Shown: positions 2,294 to 54,770, counted from the stretch's first letter. The stretch is 64,000 nucleotides of DNA from Candidatus Nomurabacteria bacterium (GCA_023898465.1 CP060223.1:320001-384000), one strand, 5' to 3'. Notes: a model not told the origin generated them from the letters alone. Made by a program: numbers and translations.

Positions 2294-3568
2294 ATGCCTA
2301 CACCAAGCATCTCCAAAGTTACTGCACTAGAAATTCTTGATTCACGTGGCAATCCTACCGTGATGGCAAAGGTTGAATTAAGCAATGGTATGGAAGCGCG
2401 AGCGGGGGTGCCATCCGGAGCTTCTACCGGACGTTTTGAAGCATTGGAGTTGCGCGATAATGACATTAATCGATACCGCGGCCGGGGCACTCGTAAAGCA
2501 GTAGATAATATTAAGACGGTTATTCACCAAGCGCTAAAAGGTAAAAGTGTTGATGATAGCTCGCAGATTGATCGCATCATGATTGATTTGGACGGTACAG
2601 AATACAAATCCAAGTTGGGGGCAAATGCCATCCTGGCGGTTTCATTAGCCTGCGCGCGCTTAGCCGCAAAAGTCTCAGGTAAACCACTCTATCAGTACAT
2701 TCATGAGCATTATGGTTTTTCTGATCAGCCGCTCCGCTTACCCGAACCCATGATGAACATTATGAATGGAGGTAAACACAGCGACTCTGGCTTATCGATC
2801 CAAGAATTTATGGTTGTACCGCACGCGCCGTCCTTCCATGAACGAGTACGCATCGGCGCAGAAATTTTTATGGCTCTCGGAGATCTCCTTCATCAGCAGC
2901 GGCTCTCAAAGTTGGTCGGAGATGAGGGTGGCTATGCACCACGCTTAGATGCAAACACAAAAGCTTTTGAGATGATTCTCGAAGCAATTCATCAGACAAA
3001 TTACAAACCAATCGATGATGTGACTTTGGCTATCGATGCCGCAGCAACGGTCTTTTATGAAGCTGATCTGAATCAATATCGTCTTATGCCAGAGGATTCA
3101 ACTTACTCGGCTGATAAGTTAGTTGATCTCTATAAAGAATGGACAGAAAAATATTTCCTTCGCTCGGTTGAAGATGGATTGCGTGAAGATGACTGGAACG
3201 GTTGGAAGATGATGACAAAGAAGTTAGGAGGAAAAGCTATGGTGGTAGGTGACGATCTCTTTGTAACGAATCCATCGCGCTTACGAGAAGGTATAAAGAA
3301 AAATGCTGCCAACGCTATCATTATCAAGCCGAACCAGATAGGCACAATGACTGAGGCAATTGAGGCGACAAAACTGGCTCAGCAAAATCATTACGCGGTG
3401 ATTGTGGCGCATCGCTCTGGTGAAACTATTGATGATTTTATTGCTGACTTAGCTGTTGGCGTGAACGCAGATTATATTAAGACTGGCTCCTTGTCTCGTG
3501 GCGAGCGTATGGCAAAATACAATCGCTTGTTGGAAATCGAAATGGAATTGAGTGAGTGGAAGAAATAA
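2294..3568 (+). CDS. eno: Enolase (phosphopyruvate hydratase). True start is the ATG at 2294 (MPTPSISKV...), not the track start at 2234.
   Basis: Canonical enolase N-terminus (I-KV-A-EILDSRGNPTV) and conserved C-terminal barrel motifs. The ORF-track start overlaps the pgk tail, so the internal ATG is chosen. Confidence 0.93.
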   Translation: MPTPSISKVTALEILDSRGNPTVMAKVELSNGMEARAGVPSGASTGRFEALELRDNDINRYRGRGTRKAVDNIKTVIHQALKGKSVDDSSQIDRIMIDLDGTEYKSKLGANAILAVSLACARLAAKVSGKPLYQYIHEHYGFSDQPLRLPEPMMNIMNGGKHSDSGLSIQEFMVVPHAPSFHERVRIGAEIFMALGDLLHQQRLSKLVGDEGGYAPRLDANTKAFEMILEAIHQTNYKPIDDVTLAIDAAATVFYEADLNQYRLMPEDSTYSADKLVDLYKEWTEKYFLRSVEDGLREDDWNGWKMMTKKLGGKAMVVGDDLFVTNPSRLREGIKKNAANAIIIKPNQIGTMTEAIEATKLAQQNHYAVIVAHRSGETIDDFIADLAVGVNADYIKTGSLSRGERMAKYNRLLEIEMELSEWKK

Positions 3569-3577
3569 ACAGCTACT

Positions 3578-5158
3578 ATGGCAACGAAAAAAGGGACTAG
3601 CACAAAAACTTCTCGAGAAGCACATCTTTGGCCCGCAGTATTGTTAGTCATTGATGGCTTTGGTCACGCGCCAGCCGGCCCAGGGAATGCTGTTACCCTG
3701 GCCAAGACGCCGAACCTAACAAAAATTATGAAAGAAAATCCCTGGACCCTACTTGACGCATCTGGTCCAGCAGTTGGTTTACCCCCGGGTCAGGCAGGAA
3801 ACTCCGAAGCTGGCCATATGAACATCGGGGCAGGTCGAGTTGTATTGCAAGATAGCGTGCATATCACGAAAGAAATTGAAGATGGCCGCTTCTTTAAAAA
3901 TGCCGCATTCCTAGATGCTATCCACCACTGTCAAAAACGCAACAGCCGTGTGCATTTGATGGGGTTACTTTCTAACGAACAGAGTGGGCATAGTAATCCG
4001 GGTCATTTGCAAGCACTCTTAAAGCTCATGCGGCAAAAAAAAGTGAAAGAAGTCTATTTACATCTTTTCACTGATGGTCGCGATACACCTCCCCGTAGCG
4101 GCCTCGGCATGCTTCATAAGTTAGAAAAAACTTTGCGACCAAATGAGCGGGTTGTCAGCATCGCCGGACGTCTATGGGCAATGGATCGTAAGAAAAATTG
4201 GCAGCGAACAGATGCCTCATATCATATGCTTATTGAGGGACAAGGTCATCAAGTAAAATCCGCCTCAGAAGCCATCAGTCAAGGCTATGCGCATGGTACG
4301 ACTGATGAATTTATCGAACCCTCTGTCATATTTGAGAAAGATAAGCCGGTCGGTCGAATCGAGGACGGTGATGCAGTCATTTACTTTAATTTACGTTCTG
4401 ATCGCGCCCGGCAGCTTACCAAGCCTTTTGTGCAGGATAACTTCAAAGAATTCCGTCGCCGCAAAGTCATGCACGACTTAGCCTTTGTGGCTATGACCGA
4501 CTTTGGCCCAGACTTGAATCATTTATTGACTGCGTATCCAAGCGTTGATATTCAGGGCACTTTGCCGATGGCCCTAAAAGGGAAGCGGCAAATGTATATT
4601 GCAGAGAATGAAAAATTCGCCCATGTAACGTATTTCTTAAACGGTGGCTATGCTAACCCGGTGGCAAATGAAGATCGCATTATGATTCCTTCACCTGCGG
4701 TTGCCCATTATGATGAGGTGCCTGGGATGTCCACCCCGGGGATTACCTTGCGTACACTTTCCGTTTTGCAAAAAAAGCAGTACGACTTTATTGGCATGAA
4801 CTTTGCCAATTGCGATATGGTAGGGCATACCGGAAATCTCAAAGCCGCCATCACTGCTGTCGAAACCGTTGATGAGGCGATTGGAACTTTATACAAAGAA
4901 ATCCAAAAGCAGGATGGGTTACTTTTTATAACTGCCGATCATGGCAATGTAGAAAGTATGCTCTTCCCAGAAACCGGTGAGGCCGATACTGAACATTCGC
5001 AAAACCCGGTTCCATTCATTATCGCTGGCAAAGTTCCGAAGCAGTTTAACATTTTGAAAAAAGATGGCGTGTTGGGTCAGGTAGCTCCGACCGTGCTTGA
5101 TACTTTGGGGATCCCCATACCGACAGAAATGAAACTCAGTTCACTATGGCAAAAGTAA
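3578..5158 (+). CDS. gpmI: 2,3-bisphosphoglycerate-independent phosphoglycerate mutase (iPGM), paralog 1
   Basis: 526 aa. Conserved iPGM motifs are present: DGFG, the GNSEAGHMN catalytic-Ser region, and the metal-binding C-terminal TADHGN. Confidence 0.88.
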   Translation: MATKKGTSTKTSREAHLWPAVLLVIDGFGHAPAGPGNAVTLAKTPNLTKIMKENPWTLLDASGPAVGLPPGQAGNSEAGHMNIGAGRVVLQDSVHITKEIEDGRFFKNAAFLDAIHHCQKRNSRVHLMGLLSNEQSGHSNPGHLQALLKLMRQKKVKEVYLHLFTDGRDTPPRSGLGMLHKLEKTLRPNERVVSIAGRLWAMDRKKNWQRTDASYHMLIEGQGHQVKSASEAISQGYAHGTTDEFIEPSVIFEKDKPVGRIEDGDAVIYFNLRSDRARQLTKPFVQDNFKEFRRRKVMHDLAFVAMTDFGPDLNHLLTAYPSVDIQGTLPMALKGKRQMYIAENEKFAHVTYFLNGGYANPVANEDRIMIPSPAVAHYDEVPGMSTPGITLRTLSVLQKKQYDFIGMNFANCDMVGHTGNLKAAITAVETVDEAIGTLYKEIQKQDGLLFITADHGNVESMLFPETGEADTEHSQNPVPFIIAGKVPKQFNILKKDGVLGQVAPTVLDTLGIPIPTEMKLSSLWQK

Positions 5159-6744
5159 GCTCCTCAGTTTATCGACCCGTCGTGCTTGTTGTCTACGATG
5201 GTTTTGGTGTCGCACCAGCTTCTCGCGGCAATGCCATTAGCTTAGCCAAGACACCACACTTTGACGATATACTCCGGCATTACCCGGCAATTACCCTACA
5301 AGCTTCTGGCGAGGCGGTTGGTTCGCTCTGGGGGGAGTTGGGGAATTCAGAAGTCGGACACATGAATATGGGCGCCGGCCGCATCGTTTATCAGGATTTG
5401 CCGAGAATCACCAAGGCAGTTGCCGACGGCAGTATCATGAAAAATCCAGCCTTGCTTGATGCGGTAAAGCACGTGAAGGAGAAGGGGAGCAGTCTCCATA
5501 TTATGGGATTGATGAGCTCAGGAGGTGTGCATAGTTTTAATGAGCACGCCTATGCTTTACTCGAATTTGCCAAGCATGAAAAAATCGACAAAGTATTTAT
5601 TCATGCCTTCTTAGACGGTCGCGATACGCCGCATAATAGCGCAGAGCGTTTTATTACCAAACTTCAAGCGACAATACAGAGTTTAGGCGTAGGGAAGATT
5701 GCCTCACTCTCTGGACGCTACTGGGCCATGGATCGAGATAATCGTTGGGATAGGATTGAAAAAGCGTATCGCGTATTAGTTGACGGCAATGCAGAACAAA
5801 GCGCAACTGATCCGATGCAAGCAATTCACGACAGCTATGCAAAGAAAGTATACGATGAGGAATTTATACCTACAGTTATCACTGATGCGGCCGGCGCCCC
5901 GATTGGGAAGATAAACAATAACGACGCAGTCATTTTCTTTAATTTCCGACCAGATCGCGCTCGCCAGTTAACCAAGGCATTTGTGCTGCCAGGTTTTGAA
6001 AAGTTTTCTCGTGTCTACATGCCAGATCTCTTTTTTGTGACAATGACTGAGTACGAAAAGGATTTGCCGGTGAGTATTGCCTTCCCACCTGAGCATGTGG
6101 CAGAGCCTCTAGCAAAAGTCCTCTCTGACGCCGGCAAGACACAACTCCATATTGCCGAGACGGAAAAGTATGCCCATGTCACTTTCTTCTTTAACGGAGG
6201 CCGAGAAAAAGCCTATCCGCAAGAGGACCGCATACTTATTCCTTCACCGGCAGTGAATTCCTATGATCAGAAGCCGGACATGAGCGCTCGTGAAATAACC
6301 GATCGCGTGATTGAAGAAATTCAGAGCATGAAGTATGACTTGATTGTTATTAATTACGCAAACGCAGATATGGTGGGTCACACCGGCAAATTGCCAGCGA
6401 CGATTGAGGCAATTGAAATGTTGGATGAGATGACAGCCCGGCTCAAAGAAATTGTCGAGGAGGTAAACGGTGTGTTGCTACTAACTGCTGATCACGGCAA
6501 TGCTGAGGATATGATTAATTTACAAACCGGCTTTTTACAAAAAGAGCACACGACAAATCCTGTCCCATGTATTTTGGTAGGAAAGGCTTTTCGTTCAACG
6601 AAAGATAAAGACACCATGTCGCTCGATCTTTCTTTGCAGACGCCACGAGGATTACTTTCTGATGTTGCACCAACTATTCTCGAGCTGATGGGAGTTGCCA
6701 AACCAAAATCCATGACTGGAAAGAGTTTGCTCCATGTGTTTTAG
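5146..6744 (+). CDS. gpmI: 2,3-bisphosphoglycerate-independent phosphoglycerate mutase (iPGM), paralog 2, in tandem with a 13-nt overlap
   Basis: 532 aa. It carries the same motif set (DGFG, GNSEVGHMN, TADHGN) but is clearly diverged from paralog 1. Confidence 0.88.
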   Translation: MAKVSSSVYRPVVLVVYDGFGVAPASRGNAISLAKTPHFDDILRHYPAITLQASGEAVGSLWGELGNSEVGHMNMGAGRIVYQDLPRITKAVADGSIMKNPALLDAVKHVKEKGSSLHIMGLMSSGGVHSFNEHAYALLEFAKHEKIDKVFIHAFLDGRDTPHNSAERFITKLQATIQSLGVGKIASLSGRYWAMDRDNRWDRIEKAYRVLVDGNAEQSATDPMQAIHDSYAKKVYDEEFIPTVITDAAGAPIGKINNNDAVIFFNFRPDRARQLTKAFVLPGFEKFSRVYMPDLFFVTMTEYEKDLPVSIAFPPEHVAEPLAKVLSDAGKTQLHIAETEKYAHVTFFFNGGREKAYPQEDRILIPSPAVNSYDQKPDMSAREITDRVIEEIQSMKYDLIVINYANADMVGHTGKLPATIEAIEMLDEMTARLKEIVEEVNGVLLLTADHGNAEDMINLQTGFLQKEHTTNPVPCILVGKAFRSTKDKDTMSLDLSLQTPRGLLSDVAPTILELMGVAKPKSMTGKSLLHVF

Positions 6745-9086: not shown

Positions 9087-10832
9087 ATGGAGGAAATAAC
9101 ACTGAAAATTGGGGGTATCGCCGGGGCGGGAATTAAATCTACCGGCGAGATATTTGCAAAAATCTGCTTGCGCTCAGGCTGGCATGTCTTTGATTACACT
9201 GAATATCCCTCACTTATTCGCGGAGGACATAACACCTATCACGTGCGAGCAGCCACGGAGCCAATCTGGAGCACGGTGCAGTATATACACATCCTTATCG
9301 CACTAAATGAGGAGGCCGTACGACTTCATTTGGAGCACGTGATTGAGGGTGGAGTAGTGGTGTACGATCCTTCGGTCGTGGATGCTGAAAAACTTGGTCG
9401 AGGTCGTAGTGATGTGCGCTTTTGTGCAGTACCTTTTGCTGAATTGGCCATTTCCTCAGGCGGTATTGAAAAGATGGGAAATATGGTTTCCATTGGTGCG
9501 GTGGTTGGACTCTTACACGGCTCGCTGAAAATTACCAAGTCAGTTATTGCCGATATTTTTGCCACTAAGGGTGAGCAAATTGTTTCACAGAATGAAGTAG
9601 CGGCTGAGGCTGGCTATGAATATGTGCAAGAGCATTTTTCTGAACCTTTTGCATGGACTTTGCATGAGTTGGATGCGCCTGAACAGATGCTCGTAGCAGG
9701 AAACGAAGCATTAGGCTTTGGCGCTTTAGCCGGCGGCGTGCAATTTTATGCGGGATATCCCATGACACCATCCTCATCCATCCTGCATTTCATGGCCAAA
9801 TACGGGCCAAAGCAGGGCGTGGTAGTGAAGCACGCTAGCGATGAAATTGGTGCAGTAAATATGTGCATTGGCGCTGGATTTGCGGGAGCGCGAGCCATGA
9901 CCGCCAGTTCGGGTGGGGGTTTTTCTCTCATGGTGGAATCACTTGGTCTAGCTGGGATTACCGAAACGCCAATTGTTATTACCGAAGTGCAGCGTGGTGG
10001 TCCAGCCACCGGCCTACCAACCTGGACCGAGCAAGCCGACCTTCGCTTTGTTGCTCATGCCTCACAGGGTGAATTTCCTCGCGTGCTTTTGGCACCTGCT
10101 TCGGTCGAGGAATGCTTTACCCATGCGGCACTGGCACTTAATCTAGCAGAAATCGCACAAACCCCAGTGCTTATCTTGTCTGATAAATTATTGGCAGAGA
10201 GTCAGAAGAGTACAGAGCCTTTCACCTCCAAACACGTTGCTATTGATCGAGGTAAGCTCATGACCACTCGGGAGGCAAATAGACAAAAAGACTACCACCG
10301 TTATGAAATCACAGAGGATGGTATTTCACCTCGAGCTGTACCAGGCCTGCCCAATACACTTTTCCTAGCTAATAGCGATGAGCATGACACCTATGGCTAT
10401 AGTGAAGAGAACGCAGAGAATCGCACCGCAATGGTTGATAAGCGAGCTCGTAAGCTTGAGCAGATTAAGGATTTACTGCCAAAGCCGATAATAATCGGAC
10501 CAAAGCAAGCTGACTACACTTTTATTACCTGGGGATCCACTATGGGCCCGGTGCTTGATGCAATGCGTATCCTCGAGGCTGAGGGACATAGCGTGCAGAT
10601 GTATCGCTTGCCAGTGATACTTCCGTTCCCAAGCGAAGAGGTAACACAATTTCTAGAAACTACCACGCAAACTATTTTAGTAGAGAATAACAGCGAAGGT
10701 CAGCTTGGTGGTTTGATTCGCGAAAAAACTGGTTACGAATTAGATGTGCACATGTTGAAATATGATGGCCGGCCCTTTTTCCCAGAGGAAATTGTACAAA
10801 ACTTTTTAGCAATGATTGAAGAAGCGCATTAA
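9087..10832 (+). CDS. korA: 2-oxoacid:ferredoxin oxidoreductase alpha subunit (fused gamma-alpha type, KorA/PorA-like)
   Basis: 581 aa with an N-terminal gamma-like domain fused to a pyruvate flavodoxin/ferredoxin oxidoreductase alpha core. It is paired with a TPP-binding beta subunit directly downstream. Confidence 0.82.
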   Translation: MEEITLKIGGIAGAGIKSTGEIFAKICLRSGWHVFDYTEYPSLIRGGHNTYHVRAATEPIWSTVQYIHILIALNEEAVRLHLEHVIEGGVVVYDPSVVDAEKLGRGRSDVRFCAVPFAELAISSGGIEKMGNMVSIGAVVGLLHGSLKITKSVIADIFATKGEQIVSQNEVAAEAGYEYVQEHFSEPFAWTLHELDAPEQMLVAGNEALGFGALAGGVQFYAGYPMTPSSSILHFMAKYGPKQGVVVKHASDEIGAVNMCIGAGFAGARAMTASSGGGFSLMVESLGLAGITETPIVITEVQRGGPATGLPTWTEQADLRFVAHASQGEFPRVLLAPASVEECFTHAALALNLAEIAQTPVLILSDKLLAESQKSTEPFTSKHVAIDRGKLMTTREANRQKDYHRYEITEDGISPRAVPGLPNTLFLANSDEHDTYGYSEENAENRTAMVDKRARKLEQIKDLLPKPIIIGPKQADYTFITWGSTMGPVLDAMRILEAEGHSVQMYRLPVILPFPSEEVTQFLETTTQTILVENNSEGQLGGLIREKTGYELDVHMLKYDGRPFFPEEIVQNFLAMIEEAH

Positions 10833-10834
10833 GC

Positions 10835-11704
10835 ATGGCCAAAGCAATCGAAAAAAAAGATAAGTTTCACACTGATAAGTCGCCAACTTGGTGCCCGGGC
10901 TGCGGCGATTTCAGTATTTGGATGGCGCTGAAAGAAGCGTTGGAGAAGTTGCAGCTAGAACCAGAAAAAGTTGTGATTGTGTACGGCATTGGTTGTTCTG
11001 GCAATATGGCGAATTATGTCCGCACCTATGGCTTCCACGGCCTGCACGGAAGAGCCTTACCAGTAGGTGAGGCGGTGAAGATGATTAATCCAGGCATGAC
11101 CGTGATCGTAGTCGGTGGAGATGGTGATGGTTTGGGCGAGGGGATCGGCCATTTCTTGCACTCAGTGCGTGGCAATCATGATCTCACGTATATTATTCAT
11201 GATAACCAGGTGTATGGCCTAACCACTGGGCAGACCGCGCCAACCTCAGCTAAGGGTTTTGTTACAAAATCTACTCCCTTCGGCGTCTTGGAAGAGCCGG
11301 TGAACGCCGCAGCACTAGCTTTAGCAGCTGGCGGGCACTTTGTGGCGCGTGGTTTTGCTGGCGAGCAAATGCATTTGGTTGATACTTTGGTTCGAGCTAT
11401 TCAGCACCCTGGCTTCTCGCTTGTAGATGTACTCCAGCCTTGTGTCACTTTTAATGACTTAAATACCTACGCCTGGTTTTTTGAGCGTATTTACAAACTG
11501 GAAGAGAGTGAGTATGCTCCGAATGACCGAATGCAGGCGATGGTAAAAGCAATGGAAAGCGCCACGCTGCCGATTGGTGTGATGTATGAAGGTGAAAGTA
11601 CGCCATATCATTTGGGTGTTGAGGGTCTGGATATTAGTAAGCCTTTAGCTGAGCAAAAGTTGAAGCCGAGAAATATTTCTACGATTGTCGAGCACTACCT
11701 CTAA
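10835..11704 (+). CDS. korB: 2-oxoacid:ferredoxin oxidoreductase beta subunit (TPP-binding)
   Basis: 289 aa with the TPP-binding GDG-X-N-like region (…VVGGDGDGLGEGIGH…) and the conserved N-terminal Cys cluster region. It abuts korA. Confidence 0.82.
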   Translation: MAKAIEKKDKFHTDKSPTWCPGCGDFSIWMALKEALEKLQLEPEKVVIVYGIGCSGNMANYVRTYGFHGLHGRALPVGEAVKMINPGMTVIVVGGDGDGLGEGIGHFLHSVRGNHDLTYIIHDNQVYGLTTGQTAPTSAKGFVTKSTPFGVLEEPVNAAALALAAGGHFVARGFAGEQMHLVDTLVRAIQHPGFSLVDVLQPCVTFNDLNTYAWFFERIYKLEESEYAPNDRMQAMVKAMESATLPIGVMYEGESTPYHLGVEGLDISKPLAEQKLKPRNISTIVEHYL

Positions 11705-17387: not shown

Positions 17388-17954
17388 ATGAAACGGGGGA
17401 TCAAGGTACTGCTTATTTCCGACGCTTGGATTAATCTTGCCTTAGGCATGATAGGTCCGATTTACGCTATTTTTGTGGAAGACATTGGCGGGGACCTCCT
17501 GGACGCGAGCTGGGCGTATTCCGTTTACATGATCACTGCTGGAGTTGTGATGTTTTTGCTTGGTAAGTGGGAGGATCGCGCCAAACACAAGGAAAAGTTT
17601 GTGGTTATTGGTTATGCGCTTATTAGCCTAGCGTGTTTCATGTATATTTTTGTGAATAGTCAGATTATGCTTTTGTTCACGCAGGCAGTACTTGGACTTT
17701 CTCTCGCCGTGCTCAGTCCGTCATTTGATGCCATTTATTCACATTTTGTGAAGCGTAAAGAAGAGGCCTCAAATTGGGGTATTTGGGAAGCGATGAGTTA
17801 TGTAGTGACCGCCATTGCCGCGATCATTGGAGGCTATGTCGCGGACGGTTTCGGTTTCCGCACCCTTTTCATTGTCATGTTTGTTATTTCCTTATTTGGT
17901 ACAAGTTATAGCATGCATTTGTATCGAGGTAAGAAGTATTTGAATCGGGGATGA
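17388..17954 (+). CDS. Six-TM MFS-like half transporter (possible truncated or stand-alone MFS half)
   Basis: 188 aa with six hydrophobic helices. The sequence resembles the C-terminal six-helix bundle of MFS permeases. Its start overlaps the upstream stop (ATGA). Confidence 0.4.
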   Translation: MKRGIKVLLISDAWINLALGMIGPIYAIFVEDIGGDLLDASWAYSVYMITAGVVMFLLGKWEDRAKHKEKFVVIGYALISLACFMYIFVNSQIMLLFTQAVLGLSLAVLSPSFDAIYSHFVKRKEEASNWGIWEAMSYVVTAIAAIIGGYVADGFGFRTLFIVMFVISLFGTSYSMHLYRGKKYLNRG

Positions 17955-18010
17955 TTCGAATGAATATGAGAAGAACAGGGACCACGCGAAGGCATAGTCC
18001 CTGTGTTCTG

Positions 18011-18490
18011 CTATTCACCGCTTGATCCGGCGCCGATCGAGGCTCCAAACACCGTCACTCCGTCGCGTTGTCCGATCATCAAGTCAACCGGTGGGAGTTG
18101 GATGAACTTCATCACATAAGGGTTCAGATACTGCAGTACCCGGAAGTGGGCAGCGTATCCGAGTATCGGGTCAAATCCGTCCGAAGGTTGGAAGCCAAGC
18201 GTTGCTGATACACCGAGGAAAGGAAGCGGTTGCACATGGACATGGCCGCCCAACATCCAGAGGATTTCCTTGTCCTCGACCTGCAGGCAGACTTGGGGTC
18301 CGACCGAGAGGTGGCTGAGAGGAAAAAGTCGATGGTACTGACCGTCGAGACGCAGTTCGTCTTCTTCATCGACTCTGGTGTCGCCACCAACGATGATTGC
18401 TCCGAACTTGGGATGAGTATCGTCGTCAGCCAGGCTTGTCCCAGCCATCAAGCCTAGCAGTAACAGTGAAAAAAGAACGCACACTTTCAT
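18011..18490 (-). CDS. Small secreted hypothetical protein with a signal peptide. The gene is strongly GC-enriched compared with its flanks. Start chosen at MKVCVLFSLLLLGLMAGTSLA…
   Basis: ORF-track 18011..18577 with an internal ATG at 18490 preceded by a GGAGGG RBS. There is an N-terminal signal peptide and conspicuous GC-rich codon usage. A spurious antisense ORF (18230..18457) is typical of GC-rich coding DNA. Confidence 0.55.
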   Translation of the reverse strand: MKVCVLFSLLLLGLMAGTSLADDDTHPKFGAIIVGGDTRVDEEDELRLDGQYHRLFPLSHLSVGPQVCLQVEDKEILWMLGGHVHVQPLPFLGVSATLGFQPSDGFDPILGYAAHFRVLQYLNPYVMKFIQLPPVDLMIGQRDGVTVFGASIGAGSSGE

Positions 18491-18578
18491 GGCACACCCT
18501 CCGTATGCATAGTGGAAACTGACGCTTACTATGGTACTCCAGGAGGGACTATCTCGCAAAAAGTGGAGAAATAGCAAC

Positions 18579-18607
18579 TTGACAAACAGGCGCTTTTTCG
18601 GTATGTT
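18579..18607 (+). promoter_or_regulatory. Promoter of rnpB: -35 TTGACA (18579-18584), 17-nt spacer, -10 TATGTT (18602-18607).
   Basis: Consensus -35 with the correct spacing, a few nt upstream of the predicted P1 5' strand of RNase P RNA. Confidence 0.5.
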
Positions 18608-18611
18608 CGCA

Positions 18612-19036
18612 TGTGCTGACGTGCGCCGGATGACTGCTCCGCCTTAGGTGGAGAGGAAAGTCCGAACACCCCCCAAGCCCCCCATTTTTGAGAGGTTTGT
18701 GGAAGTAGGTCGTTCCGAAAGGGAACCGAGCAATTGGTTGTAAGCTTTCGGCCGAATAACCAATGGTTTAGGGAAAGTGTCACAGAGACAATACTGCCGA
18801 TGATCTCGCTTAGCGGGATACAGGTAATAGGTGAAAAGTAAGGGCCTAAGAATCCTTTCTCTTCATAGGTGACTATGAGGAGTGAAAAACCCGACCTGGT
18901 GCAAGATCGCATAGGTCTAGTCATTCGACTGGACGGGTAGATCGCATGATCCCGACGGCGACGTCGGGGCTAGAGAGATAGTCATCCCTCATTATGAGGA
19001 CAGAATTCGGCTTATAGGTGTGCGTCAGCACCTAAG
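18612..19036 (+). ncRNA. rnpB: RNase P RNA (bacterial type A-like M1 RNA)
   Basis: Contains the universally conserved P4 strands GAGGAAAGUCCGAAC (about 18650) and ACAGAAUUCGGCUUAUAGG (about 18995). The P10-12 region is also M1-like (AGGGAAAGUG…GCCGAUGAU…GGGAUACAGGUAAUAGGUGAAAAGUAAGG). P1 can pair 5' GUGCUGACG (18613-18621) with CGUCAGCAC (19023-19031). Confidence 0.85.
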
Positions 19037-54014: not shown

Positions 54015-54668
54015 ATGCGTTGGAAGAGCATGTCTTACCTGGCCTTCTTGATGGCCTTCATCGTCAGTCTCGGTACGTGGACGGGCGCTCAGGCAGCTGA
54101 GGAAGAGGTCTGTGATCCTCAGCCGGTGATCATGTGCACTTCGGCCTACTATGACTTCATGAGGCTCCTCACGGACGGTAACTGCTCGACTGTGGTGACC
54201 GAAGGGGAGAGCTCCTGGACCTTCAATTCGTGGCCACTGCTGTACTGCACGCAAGTGCCGGCAACGCTCAACTACGATGACTACTTCAGCACCGTGTCGA
54301 GTACGATCGAGCTGCGCGACGAGCATCCTTCGTTGAGCTTGATGAGTGACGGCGAGTGCTTCGAGGTCTACGCGGCGTGTCAGGGAGGTGCCTACGGCGT
54401 CACGGTGATGTATACGCACGCTGATGGATCGATGAGCTACGTCGGACAGCCGGGTGATTGCCCAGTCCAGATCAGTGGCGCCATTGCACTCAAGTTCGAC
54501 GGCGAGGCGCGCGAGCTCTACGTCGACGAGGGTTTTCGGACTCAAGTCTATCGAGTCGATGACCCACTTGGCTCACAGCACGCTCGAACCCTTCTACCGG
54601 ACCAGGCCGATACCCAAAGCGATAGGGTAGCGACCGACCAGTTCGCTGAAGTGGTATCCACGCGCTAG
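54015..54668 (+). CDS. Cysteine-rich secreted hypothetical protein with a signal peptide. The gene has strikingly high GC and GC3 relative to the rest of the window.
   Basis: 217 aa with N-terminal signal peptide MRWKSMSYLAFLMAFIVSLGTWTGAQA and 8 Cys in the mature part. Codons are dominated by G/C-ending triplets. A long spurious antisense ORF (54009..54545) is typical for GC-rich genes. Confidence 0.6.
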   Translation: MRWKSMSYLAFLMAFIVSLGTWTGAQAAEEEVCDPQPVIMCTSAYYDFMRLLTDGNCSTVVTEGESSWTFNSWPLLYCTQVPATLNYDDYFSTVSSTIELRDEHPSLSLMSDGECFEVYAACQGGAYGVTVMYTHADGSMSYVGQPGDCPVQISGAIALKFDGEARELYVDEGFRTQVYRVDDPLGSQHARTLLPDQADTQSDRVATDQFAEVVSTR

Positions 54669-54675
54669 TTCCCAG

Positions 54676-54728
54676 CTCGGAGCAAGTTACTTACTTAGGT
54701 GAGTAGCAGCTCCGAGCTTTCTTTCTTT
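54676..54728 (+). terminator. Terminator-like long hairpin after the GC-rich gene (AGCTCGGAGC … GCTCCGAGCT, 10-bp stem) followed by a TTTCTTTCTTT tract
   Basis: A perfect 10-bp stem with a T-rich tail. Confidence 0.5.
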
Positions 54729-54770
54729 AAAGAAGCTATTACAAGCGAGAAGTATAATGCATCTACGCTA

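Follow-up and report, generated by a model that had tools for sequence, protein, structure and literature searches.

An accessory gene for a predicted exported protein, placed upstream of rnpB and evolving out of step with its flank, in a Candidatus Nomurabacteria genome

Introduction

What is a small, GC-rich gene with the look of a secreted-protein gene doing immediately upstream of rnpB, the gene for RNase P RNA? The question is raised by a 64,000-nucleotide stretch of Candidatus Nomurabacteria bacterium (GCA_023898465.1, CP060223.1:320001-384000), hereafter the window, in which an open reading frame (ORF) of 159 codons, ORF159, occupies positions 18011-18490 on the minus strand. A first-pass annotation of the sequence had viewed this gene as one of a small set of acquired secreted factors, inserted at an integration hot spot and possibly truncating a neighbouring transporter gene. 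Our analysis leads elsewhere. We consider it rather probable that ORF159 is a self-contained accessory gene of Patescibacteria, with an exported product and an evolutionary history of its own, in which replacement of the allele is the favoured event.

Results

ORF159 starts with an ATG at 18490 and runs on the minus strand for 159 codons plus a stop, as first annotated. The ORF list and its translation gave a 100% match to protein H6760_01620 of the metagenome-assembled genome (MAG), annotated as a hypothetical protein. On alignment with P0002, its ortholog in the relative L001, identities at codon positions 1, 2 and 3 were 0.71, 0.80 and 0.43. The ratio of nonsynonymous to synonymous divergence (dN/dS) was 0.18 against P0002 and 0.13 against another family member, P0126 (about 0.15 overall). 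Because of these values, we conclude that ORF159 is a genuine gene, whose coding sequence evolves under purifying selection.

The composition of the gene is unusual. Its GC content is 0.544, as compared with 0.461 for the window, a level found in just 1% of 480-bp windows; these lie at ~9.6 kb, around ORF159 and at 53-54 kb. Its GC content at third codon positions (GC3), 0.594, ranks second among 55 ORFs (gene mean 0.43), behind that of the ORF at 54015-54668 (0.725). The values expected from the amino acids of ORF159 and the codon usage of the window were 0.483 for GC and 0.427 for GC3, so that the observed GC3 was 4.27 standard deviations above expectation (0 of 20000 simulations). This indicated that the enrichment, which had been claimed by eye, is real and no by-product of amino-acid content. 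Moreover, the GC3 of the gene exceeds that of flanking genes by 0.10-0.24 in every carrier genome. It is 0.56-0.60 in the window and in the relative L103 alike, against 0.42-0.47 for the sugar transferase gene Bac_transf, and in the distant carrier L004 it is 0.70, against 0.44-0.60 for the genes that border the pair formed by the ORF159 homolog and the gene downstream of it. The view of ORF159 as an accessory, compositionally atypical gene is supported.

The closest relatives, L001 and L103, carry ORF159 at the same rnpB site. In both, the ortholog has the same orientation, is likewise divergent from rnpB, and has the same Shine-Dalgarno sequence and the same downstream hairpin. Beyond the hairpin, L001 has a Peptidase_S51 fragment and the window a half-size gene of the major facilitator superfamily (MFS); the window holds no S51 gene, and no ribosomal-protein gene was found among its small ORFs. 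When the window was compared with L103, the first 278 codons of Bac_transf were 90.8% identical in nucleotides and 97.1% in amino acids (dS 0.51, dN 0.016), and the rnpB core was 94-95% identical in nucleotides outside the insertions of L103. In ORF159, these figures fell to 67% and 58%, with a dN of 0.31 and a dS of 1.7-2.4 (both orthologs). At four-fold degenerate sites of amino-acid-conserved codons, 57% differed in ORF159 versus 28% in Bac_transf (Fisher P=5e-4). The excess of synonymous differences was about 2-fold in raw counts and about 3-fold after multiple-hit correction. Sliding identity switches sharply at about 18557, between two divergent promoters. Thus, the history of ORF159 is discordant with that of its right-hand flank.

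Most likely, recombination would have replaced the allele with one from a more distant member of a small gene pool, restricted to the Candidate Phyla Radiation (CPR). Fast protein evolution may have gone alongside, a pattern typical of exposed proteins, on which diversifying selection presumably acts. The same discordance would also arise if the divergence of ORF159 were the true distance between the organisms and the rnpB-Bac_transf block had been exchanged more recently. As a matter of fact, the comparison is possible on one flank only, the genes left of the hairpin differ between the window (half-MFS) and L001 (Peptidase_S51), and polysaccharide clusters are often exchanged. However, it is ORF159 that stands out in composition, not Bac_transf, whose GC3 (0.42) is close to the gene mean. 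In addition, the flank has a dS of 0.51, hence no recent import, the derived adjacency of ORF159 and rnpB is confined to these lineages, and the hairpin stem is identical in both. We hold an exchange of the flank to be unlikely.

Alternatively, ORF159 might be native and vertically inherited, with a local effect lifting both GC3 and substitution rate without any import of an allele. Such an effect could come from GC-biased gene conversion, from a mutational influence of the two divergent promoters, or from selection on mRNA or codons. Three genomes agree in where the gene lies, in its orientation and in the terminator-like hairpin that follows it, GC3 is raised in all carriers, including the distant L004 with its GC-rich downstream gene, and no outside donor was found, all of which would suit such an effect. 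Yet it would require a ~3-fold higher neutral rate confined with sharp edges to about 480 bp, and no other window gene except the one at 54 kb has a GC3 this high. We give a purely local effect little credence, and allele replacement remains the explanation that we favour.

We then considered the signals that would express the gene. The Shine-Dalgarno sequence GGAGGG (minus strand, 18497-18502) lies 6 nt before the ATG, where it had been annotated, and is invariant in the window, L001 and L103. A putative sigma-70-like promoter, TTGCGA-17-TACCAT (minus strand, 18531-18559), stands back-to-back with the rnpB promoter. In a three-way alignment of the window with L001 and L103, the TTGC and TA...T positions are kept, while the 17-nt spacer is entirely different and the 5' untranslated region has diverged. 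After the stop codon comes a terminator-like hairpin (core at 17975-18004, minus strand), already noticed as a strong 12-bp hairpin at 17975-18012. Its stem counts 13 bp including two G.U pairs, the tetraloop is CUUC, and outer pairing reaches about 17961-18015. As ORF-sense RNA, the 62-nt stretch 17955-18016 folds with a dG of -29.4 kcal/mol (z=-7.05); on the plus strand it folds less well (-23.3 kcal/mol, z=-4.2), which points to a role in the ORF159 transcript. L001 and L103 match the window at each of the 26 stem nucleotides, whereas the loop differs. Since Shine-Dalgarno sequence, promoter hexamer positions and terminator-like hairpin are conserved while spacer and 5' untranslated region have diverged, ORF159 appears, judging from this pattern of conservation, to be an autonomous unit.

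The hairpin motif is present once in the window and, among 102 loci, only in L001-L003. A repeated element of the repetitive extragenic palindromic or attC type was ruled out, as the hairpin is unique in the window and occurs solely with ORF159. An Rfam search of 17900-18640 (E<=1) gave no match. The second structure that had been proposed to bracket the gene, an imperfect long palindrome at 18495-18550 on neither strand in particular, found no support as a feature. Indeed, it folds no better than shuffled sequences (z=-1.63, 13 of 200 shuffles as good), is missing from the repeat-search output and is conserved in neither L001 nor L103. Its CCCTCC arm sits in the spacer of the likely promoter. 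A role in hiding the Shine-Dalgarno sequence was also discarded, the palindrome being insignificant, unconserved and probably upstream of the transcription start.

The gene for RNase P RNA, of bacterial class A, lies at 18618-19030 on the plus strand (cmscan, RF00010, 164.8 bits) and forms the left edge of a conserved block. Its promoter, TTGACA-17-TATGTT (plus strand, 18579-18607; 10 of 12 matches in the promoter scan), is conserved in L001 and L103. ORF159, whose ATG is at 18490, is located just upstream of this promoter, as first described, and back-to-back with rnpB about 130 bp away. In the window, the gene order is POR-...-RecJ-DUF1801-UPF0182-half-MFS-ORF159 (reversed)-rnpB, followed by Bac_transf.

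Relatives for synteny were located via the Bac_transf protein. The block rnpB-Bac_transf-GT4-Wzz-like-GT4-DUF4012-MurJ-LepA is widely conserved among them, and the backbone left of rnpB reads (POR/PGK)-RecJ-(RNase H), followed by variable genes. We confirmed rnpB beside Bac_transf by cmscan in 14 further loci, 12 of them in the Bac_transf orientation and two inverted (L030, L033). What stands upstream of rnpB differs: PGK-RecJ-RNase H directly abutting it in L027 and L050; RecJ and then about 600 bp in L038; RecJ-RNase H-...-UPF0182-response regulator-AF_1845 in L013; heliorhodopsin-DUF378-Pyr_excise in L015; AF_1845-DUF378 in L016 and L017; a GC-rich M23 peptidase with a Por_Secre_tail domain in L026; and an unrelated divergent gene in L018. 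By tblastn, no ORF159 homolog was present upstream of rnpB in the other loci checked, including 14 with a Bac_transf 41-65% identical. The RecJ-rnpB stretch is thus a variable zone bordering a conserved block: when the region upstream of rnpB is compared among relatives, as the first-pass annotation had suggested, its gene content changes and the rnpB-glycosyltransferase block stays constant.

Several of these loci deserve mention in their own right. In L015, the heliorhodopsin gene upstream of rnpB lies at 4905-5696, and an uncalled ORF at 6012-6338, between DUF378 and rnpB, matches Pyr_excise, a pyrimidine-dimer DNA glycosylase. In L026, whose Bac_transf is 54% identical, an exported-looking protein of 678 amino acids is encoded directly upstream of rnpB (3156-5192; GC 0.542, locus 0.418). 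It combines Peptidase_M23 with Por_Secre_tail, a C-terminal sorting domain of the type IX secretion system (T9SS) type, which was unexpected in a Patescibacteria contig. The rnpB of L103 (850-1478) is about 630 nt long, versus 413 nt in the window, and has GC-rich extra segments at window positions roughly 18645-18698 and 18992, which include a duplicated motif (CCACCTTCGCTCGCT.CTGCGAGCT ... GTTCACG..AGTGAACGAAGGAGGG). Among related loci, the shortest rnpB has 327 nt and the longest 636 nt. Several Logan contigs, assembled from different samples (L001, L019-L022), stop inside or just beside rnpB, as would be expected if assembly breaks where a conserved RNA gene meets strain-variable sequence.

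Could ORF159 be a recent foreign island carrying a secreted factor, inserted at an rnpB hot spot and halving a 12-transmembrane (TM) MFS gene? The anomalous GC and GC3, the variation of genes upstream of rnpB among relatives, and a neighbour that matches only the N-terminal half of MFS_1 would be in keeping with this. However, no integrase or recombinase was found among those ORF159 neighbours with Pfam information (POR, RecJ, DUF1801, UPF0182 and the MFS half on one side; Bac_transf, GT4, a 207-aa protein, GT4, DUF4012, MurJ and LepA on the other), a scan outside which the ORF at 10835-11704 falls. Direct repeats of at least 9 nt resembling attachment (att) sites did not bracket ORF159, and the gene had no match in phage genomes, in plasmids (tblastn) or in IMG/VR. 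Known integrases target the 3' end of stable-RNA genes, whereas ORF159 lies on the 5', promoter side of rnpB, a location that misfits integrase-mediated insertion into a stable-RNA gene. Nor is ORF159 a recent insertion, because in two related lineages it occupies the equivalent position and orientation and is followed by the same terminator-like hairpin; its synonymous divergence from these orthologs is saturated, so the placement is old. The hot-spot proposal is contradicted by these observations, and we regard an island of this kind as very improbable.

The neighbour itself speaks against a halved transporter. It lies at 17388-17954 on the plus strand, convergent with ORF159, and encodes 188 amino acids with about 6 TM segments. 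The protein does match only half of a transporter profile (Pfam MFS_1, 5.8e-26, profile positions 10-166 of 347), and this part of the first description stands. Truncation by an insertion does not. A scan of species-representative genomes returned seven relatives, 66-78% identical, from Magasanikbacteria, Paceibacterota and one 'Aenigmatarchaeota' MAG. In six, the ORF has 188-189 codons and aligns end to end, over residues 1-186 or 1-187; the seventh is cut by a contig end. Relatives with a complete ORF thus show no full-length 12-TM form; neighbouring genes differ in each, and no rnpB was seen within the 4-6 kb flank. A truncated transporter was therefore ruled out, and the gene is an intact member of a conserved, stand-alone half-size family.

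Incidentally, the half-MFS protein is 77-78% identical to proteins of Magasanikbacteria and other Patescibacteria MAGs with a GC of about 32-35% (loci L006-L012), and 68% identical to that of the MAG labelled Aenigmatarchaeota. These identities exceed the 65% found between the housekeeping neighbour Bac_transf and its best full-length relatives. In several genomes, the half-MFS gene has a GC of 0.38-0.40, above most flanking genes (about 0.27-0.33). The high identity and GC suggest horizontal spread of this gene among CPR and DPANN.

As for its product, ORF159 begins with a predicted Sec signal peptide of 21 amino acids, MKVCVLFSLLLLGLMAGTSLA (18428-18490, minus strand), for which cleavage after SLA is likely. 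By inspection, its n-region is basic, its hydrophobic core spans ~15 residues and S-L-A stands ahead of the mature part, as in substrates of signal peptidase (SPase) I: MK-VCVLFSLLLLGLMAG-TSLA, then DDD. The proteins P0002, P0126 and P0003 are laid out alike. This layout, with small residues at -3 and -1, recurs in all four family members, although the signal sequence itself is poorly conserved, and it agrees with the signal peptide first annotated. A lipobox (L-[AS]-[GA]-C, Cys at +1; SPase II) was looked for, and in none of the four does a Cys close the h-region. The mature part had been described as rich in D, E, G, P and H. This was correct for H, G, D and P, enriched 1.6-1.8x, but not for E, which is depleted (0.71x). 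In all four proteins, the mature part is acidic and 135-138 residues long, and the motifs ELRLDGQYHRL, GFDP..GYAAH.R.LQYL and VFGASIGAGSSGE are conserved. The C-terminus of ORF159, which ends in GSSGE, is its most conserved part.

The family is small. A phmmer search against 1.84 billion representative proteins gave two credible relatives only, P0002 (158 aa, 61% identical, or 62% in the HMMER alignment) and P0003 (156 aa, 31-33%), and P0126 is one more sequence within the P0002 cluster. In terms of loci, the orthologs are those of L001 and L103, and the distant homolog, 31-37% identical, is that of L004. A profile search against 5.8 billion clusters added no further relatives. Altogether the family comprises four sequences from three lineages, all from MAGs or metagenome contigs. 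Among the representatives, no homolog was found beyond these lineages, and no outside donor could thus be identified. Two further hits, P0004 and P0005, were judged spurious, as they are long repeat proteins matched over short repeated stretches. The first impression of a protein without recognisable domain was confirmed by the lack of a match in Pfam, NCBIfam, PHROGs and PDB sequences. A search of the literature for integration at rnpB and for secreted ORFans of CPR bacteria returned nothing pertinent.

A structural model could be read as an 8-stranded membrane beta-barrel (OmpX/PagL-like) from a diderm bacterium. That model is unreliable, with a predicted local distance difference test score (pLDDT) of 38.8, and a second one differs. 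Moreover, there is no Pfam match to an outer-membrane protein at E<=10, the C-terminus lacks an aromatic beta-signal, and no diderm homolog exists among the 1.84 billion representatives; Patescibacteria are generally considered to have no outer membrane. Such a barrel is highly doubtful. Last, the lack of a known domain and the mere four sequences might evoke a chance open frame, but full-length homologs, a dN/dS of 0.13-0.18, third positions far less conserved than second ones, and a conserved Shine-Dalgarno sequence and start codon make this next to impossible.

A second GC-rich cassette stands in the window. The ORF at 54015-54668 (plus strand) encodes 217 amino acids with a signal-like N-terminus, MRWKSMSYLAFLMAFIVSLGTWTGAQA, and without any Pfam hit. 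This ORF, with a GC of 0.584, also has the highest GC3 of the window. It has its own GGAGGG Shine-Dalgarno sequence and a terminator at about 54669-54730, with the strong stem AGCTCGGAGC...GCTCCGAGCT followed by TTTCTTTCTTT. The 90% cluster of its product contains one other sequence, which is partial. The idea that this gene and ORF159 belong to one set of acquired secreted factors found little support: the two share a similar build only and no sequence similarity. In L004, a 192-aa protein (10496-11074; GC 0.554) starts 25 nt after the ORF159 homolog. This protein lacks both a signal peptide and a Pfam match, and a classical terminator follows its gene. The protein may be a functional partner that is absent from the window.

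Discussion

The question that we asked was what this gene is doing upstream of rnpB. On the reading that we favour, ORF159 would be transcribed alone, probably from a weak sigma-70-like promoter back-to-back with that of rnpB; for translation it has a strong GGAGGG Shine-Dalgarno sequence. Transcription would probably stop at the 13-bp hairpin, which folds best on the ORF strand. Because it has a Sec-type signal peptide without lipobox, the product would most likely be exported and, once cleaved, be an acidic protein of ~15 kDa with an isoelectric point of about 4.8, probably beta-rich and located at or beyond the cell surface. The gene stands at a boundary, between the conserved rnpB/polysaccharide-synthesis block that extends to LepA and the variable RecJ-rnpB stretch.

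Several points weigh against parts of this reading. Close relatives are represented by two short contigs, L001 with 997 bp and L103 with 2132 bp, and the divergence figures are those of these contigs; the unusual history could also be that of the flanking block instead of ORF159. The average dN/dS is well below 1, so that diversifying selection can only be presumed. The putative promoter matches the consensus at 8 of 12 positions, under the promoter-scan threshold, and the hairpin tail, UCUUCUCA, has 4 U in 8, a weak U-tract on which the terminator scan made no call. Export was judged by eye from the N-terminal layout. The two AlphaFold models (pLDDT 38.8 and 39.3) conflict over residues 108-122, and the predicted beta-rich character is weak. 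Finally, allele replacement only partly accounts for the combination of high GC3 and invariant hairpin stem; a possible explanation is that the stem could lie outside the replaced segment.

A bolder version, to which we lend little weight, is that ORF159 marks out strains of a CPR episymbiont as a surface or secreted protein, for example in host recognition or exposed to phages, and that deeply diverged GC-rich alleles, maintained side by side in the population, are swapped as compact promoter-ORF-terminator cassettes by recombination anchored in rnpB and in the hairpin. If true, the slot upstream of rnpB would be a dedicated exchange site for genes of small exported proteins; this idea comes from the GC-rich gene for an exported-looking protein at that place in L026 and from the similar cassette at 54 kb in the window.

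Little is known about how Patescibacteria, largely without isolates, recognise hosts or evade phages. Small exported proteins that are confined to one lineage, and whose evolution does not follow that of the rest of the genome, are plausible players in these processes. For surveys of alleles in metagenomes, rnpB and the invariant hairpin would offer handles for polymerase chain reaction or read mapping. As the evidence stands, ORF159 is one uncharacterised, hypothetical protein among many that are encoded in variable regions.

How does this locus compare with known systems? With islets and islands next to stable-RNA genes, such as those targeted to tRNA or tmRNA genes, it shares an accessory gene of atypical composition, a stable-RNA neighbour and a variable stretch. 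In contrast to these, ORF159 stands alone, on the 5' side of rnpB, has no integrase, att duplication or mobile-element genes, and is retained at one and the same site across diverged relatives. The neighbouring transporter gene resembles half-size (6-TM) MFS proteins in that it matches the N-terminal half of MFS_1 and is conserved at 188-189 amino acids; it lies, however, outside the ORF159 unit. Small 8-stranded barrels (OmpX/PagL/NspA, or of the lipocalin/avidin type) differ from ORF159, which has no profile match, no aromatic C-terminal signal and a low-confidence model.

Diversity-generating retroelements (DGRs) have been reported to be common in CPR bacteria, and ORF159, predicted to be a variable exported protein of a CPR genome, resembles their targets in this respect. 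We rejected it as a DGR variable protein, since a blastn comparison (word size 7) of 17955-18617 with the rest of the 64-kb window gave chance hits of <=23 nt only and thus no template repeat; besides, differences occur all along the gene, and the best-conserved part is the C-terminus.

Hypervariable loci of surface or secreted proteins, whose diversity is maintained by recombination between conserved flanks, as known for pilin, flagellin and outer-surface antigens, offer a further comparison. They differ in that only three alleles of ORF159 are at hand, with an average dN/dS <0.2, diversifying selection and recombination being conjectural here. Yet the likeness extends to several traits: identity falls sharply, the flank standing at 91-95% and ORF159 at about 65%, the synonymous divergence of the gene is excessive, its product is predicted to be exported, and its conserved 3' end and terminator-like hairpin on one side and the rnpB promoter on the other could anchor recombination.
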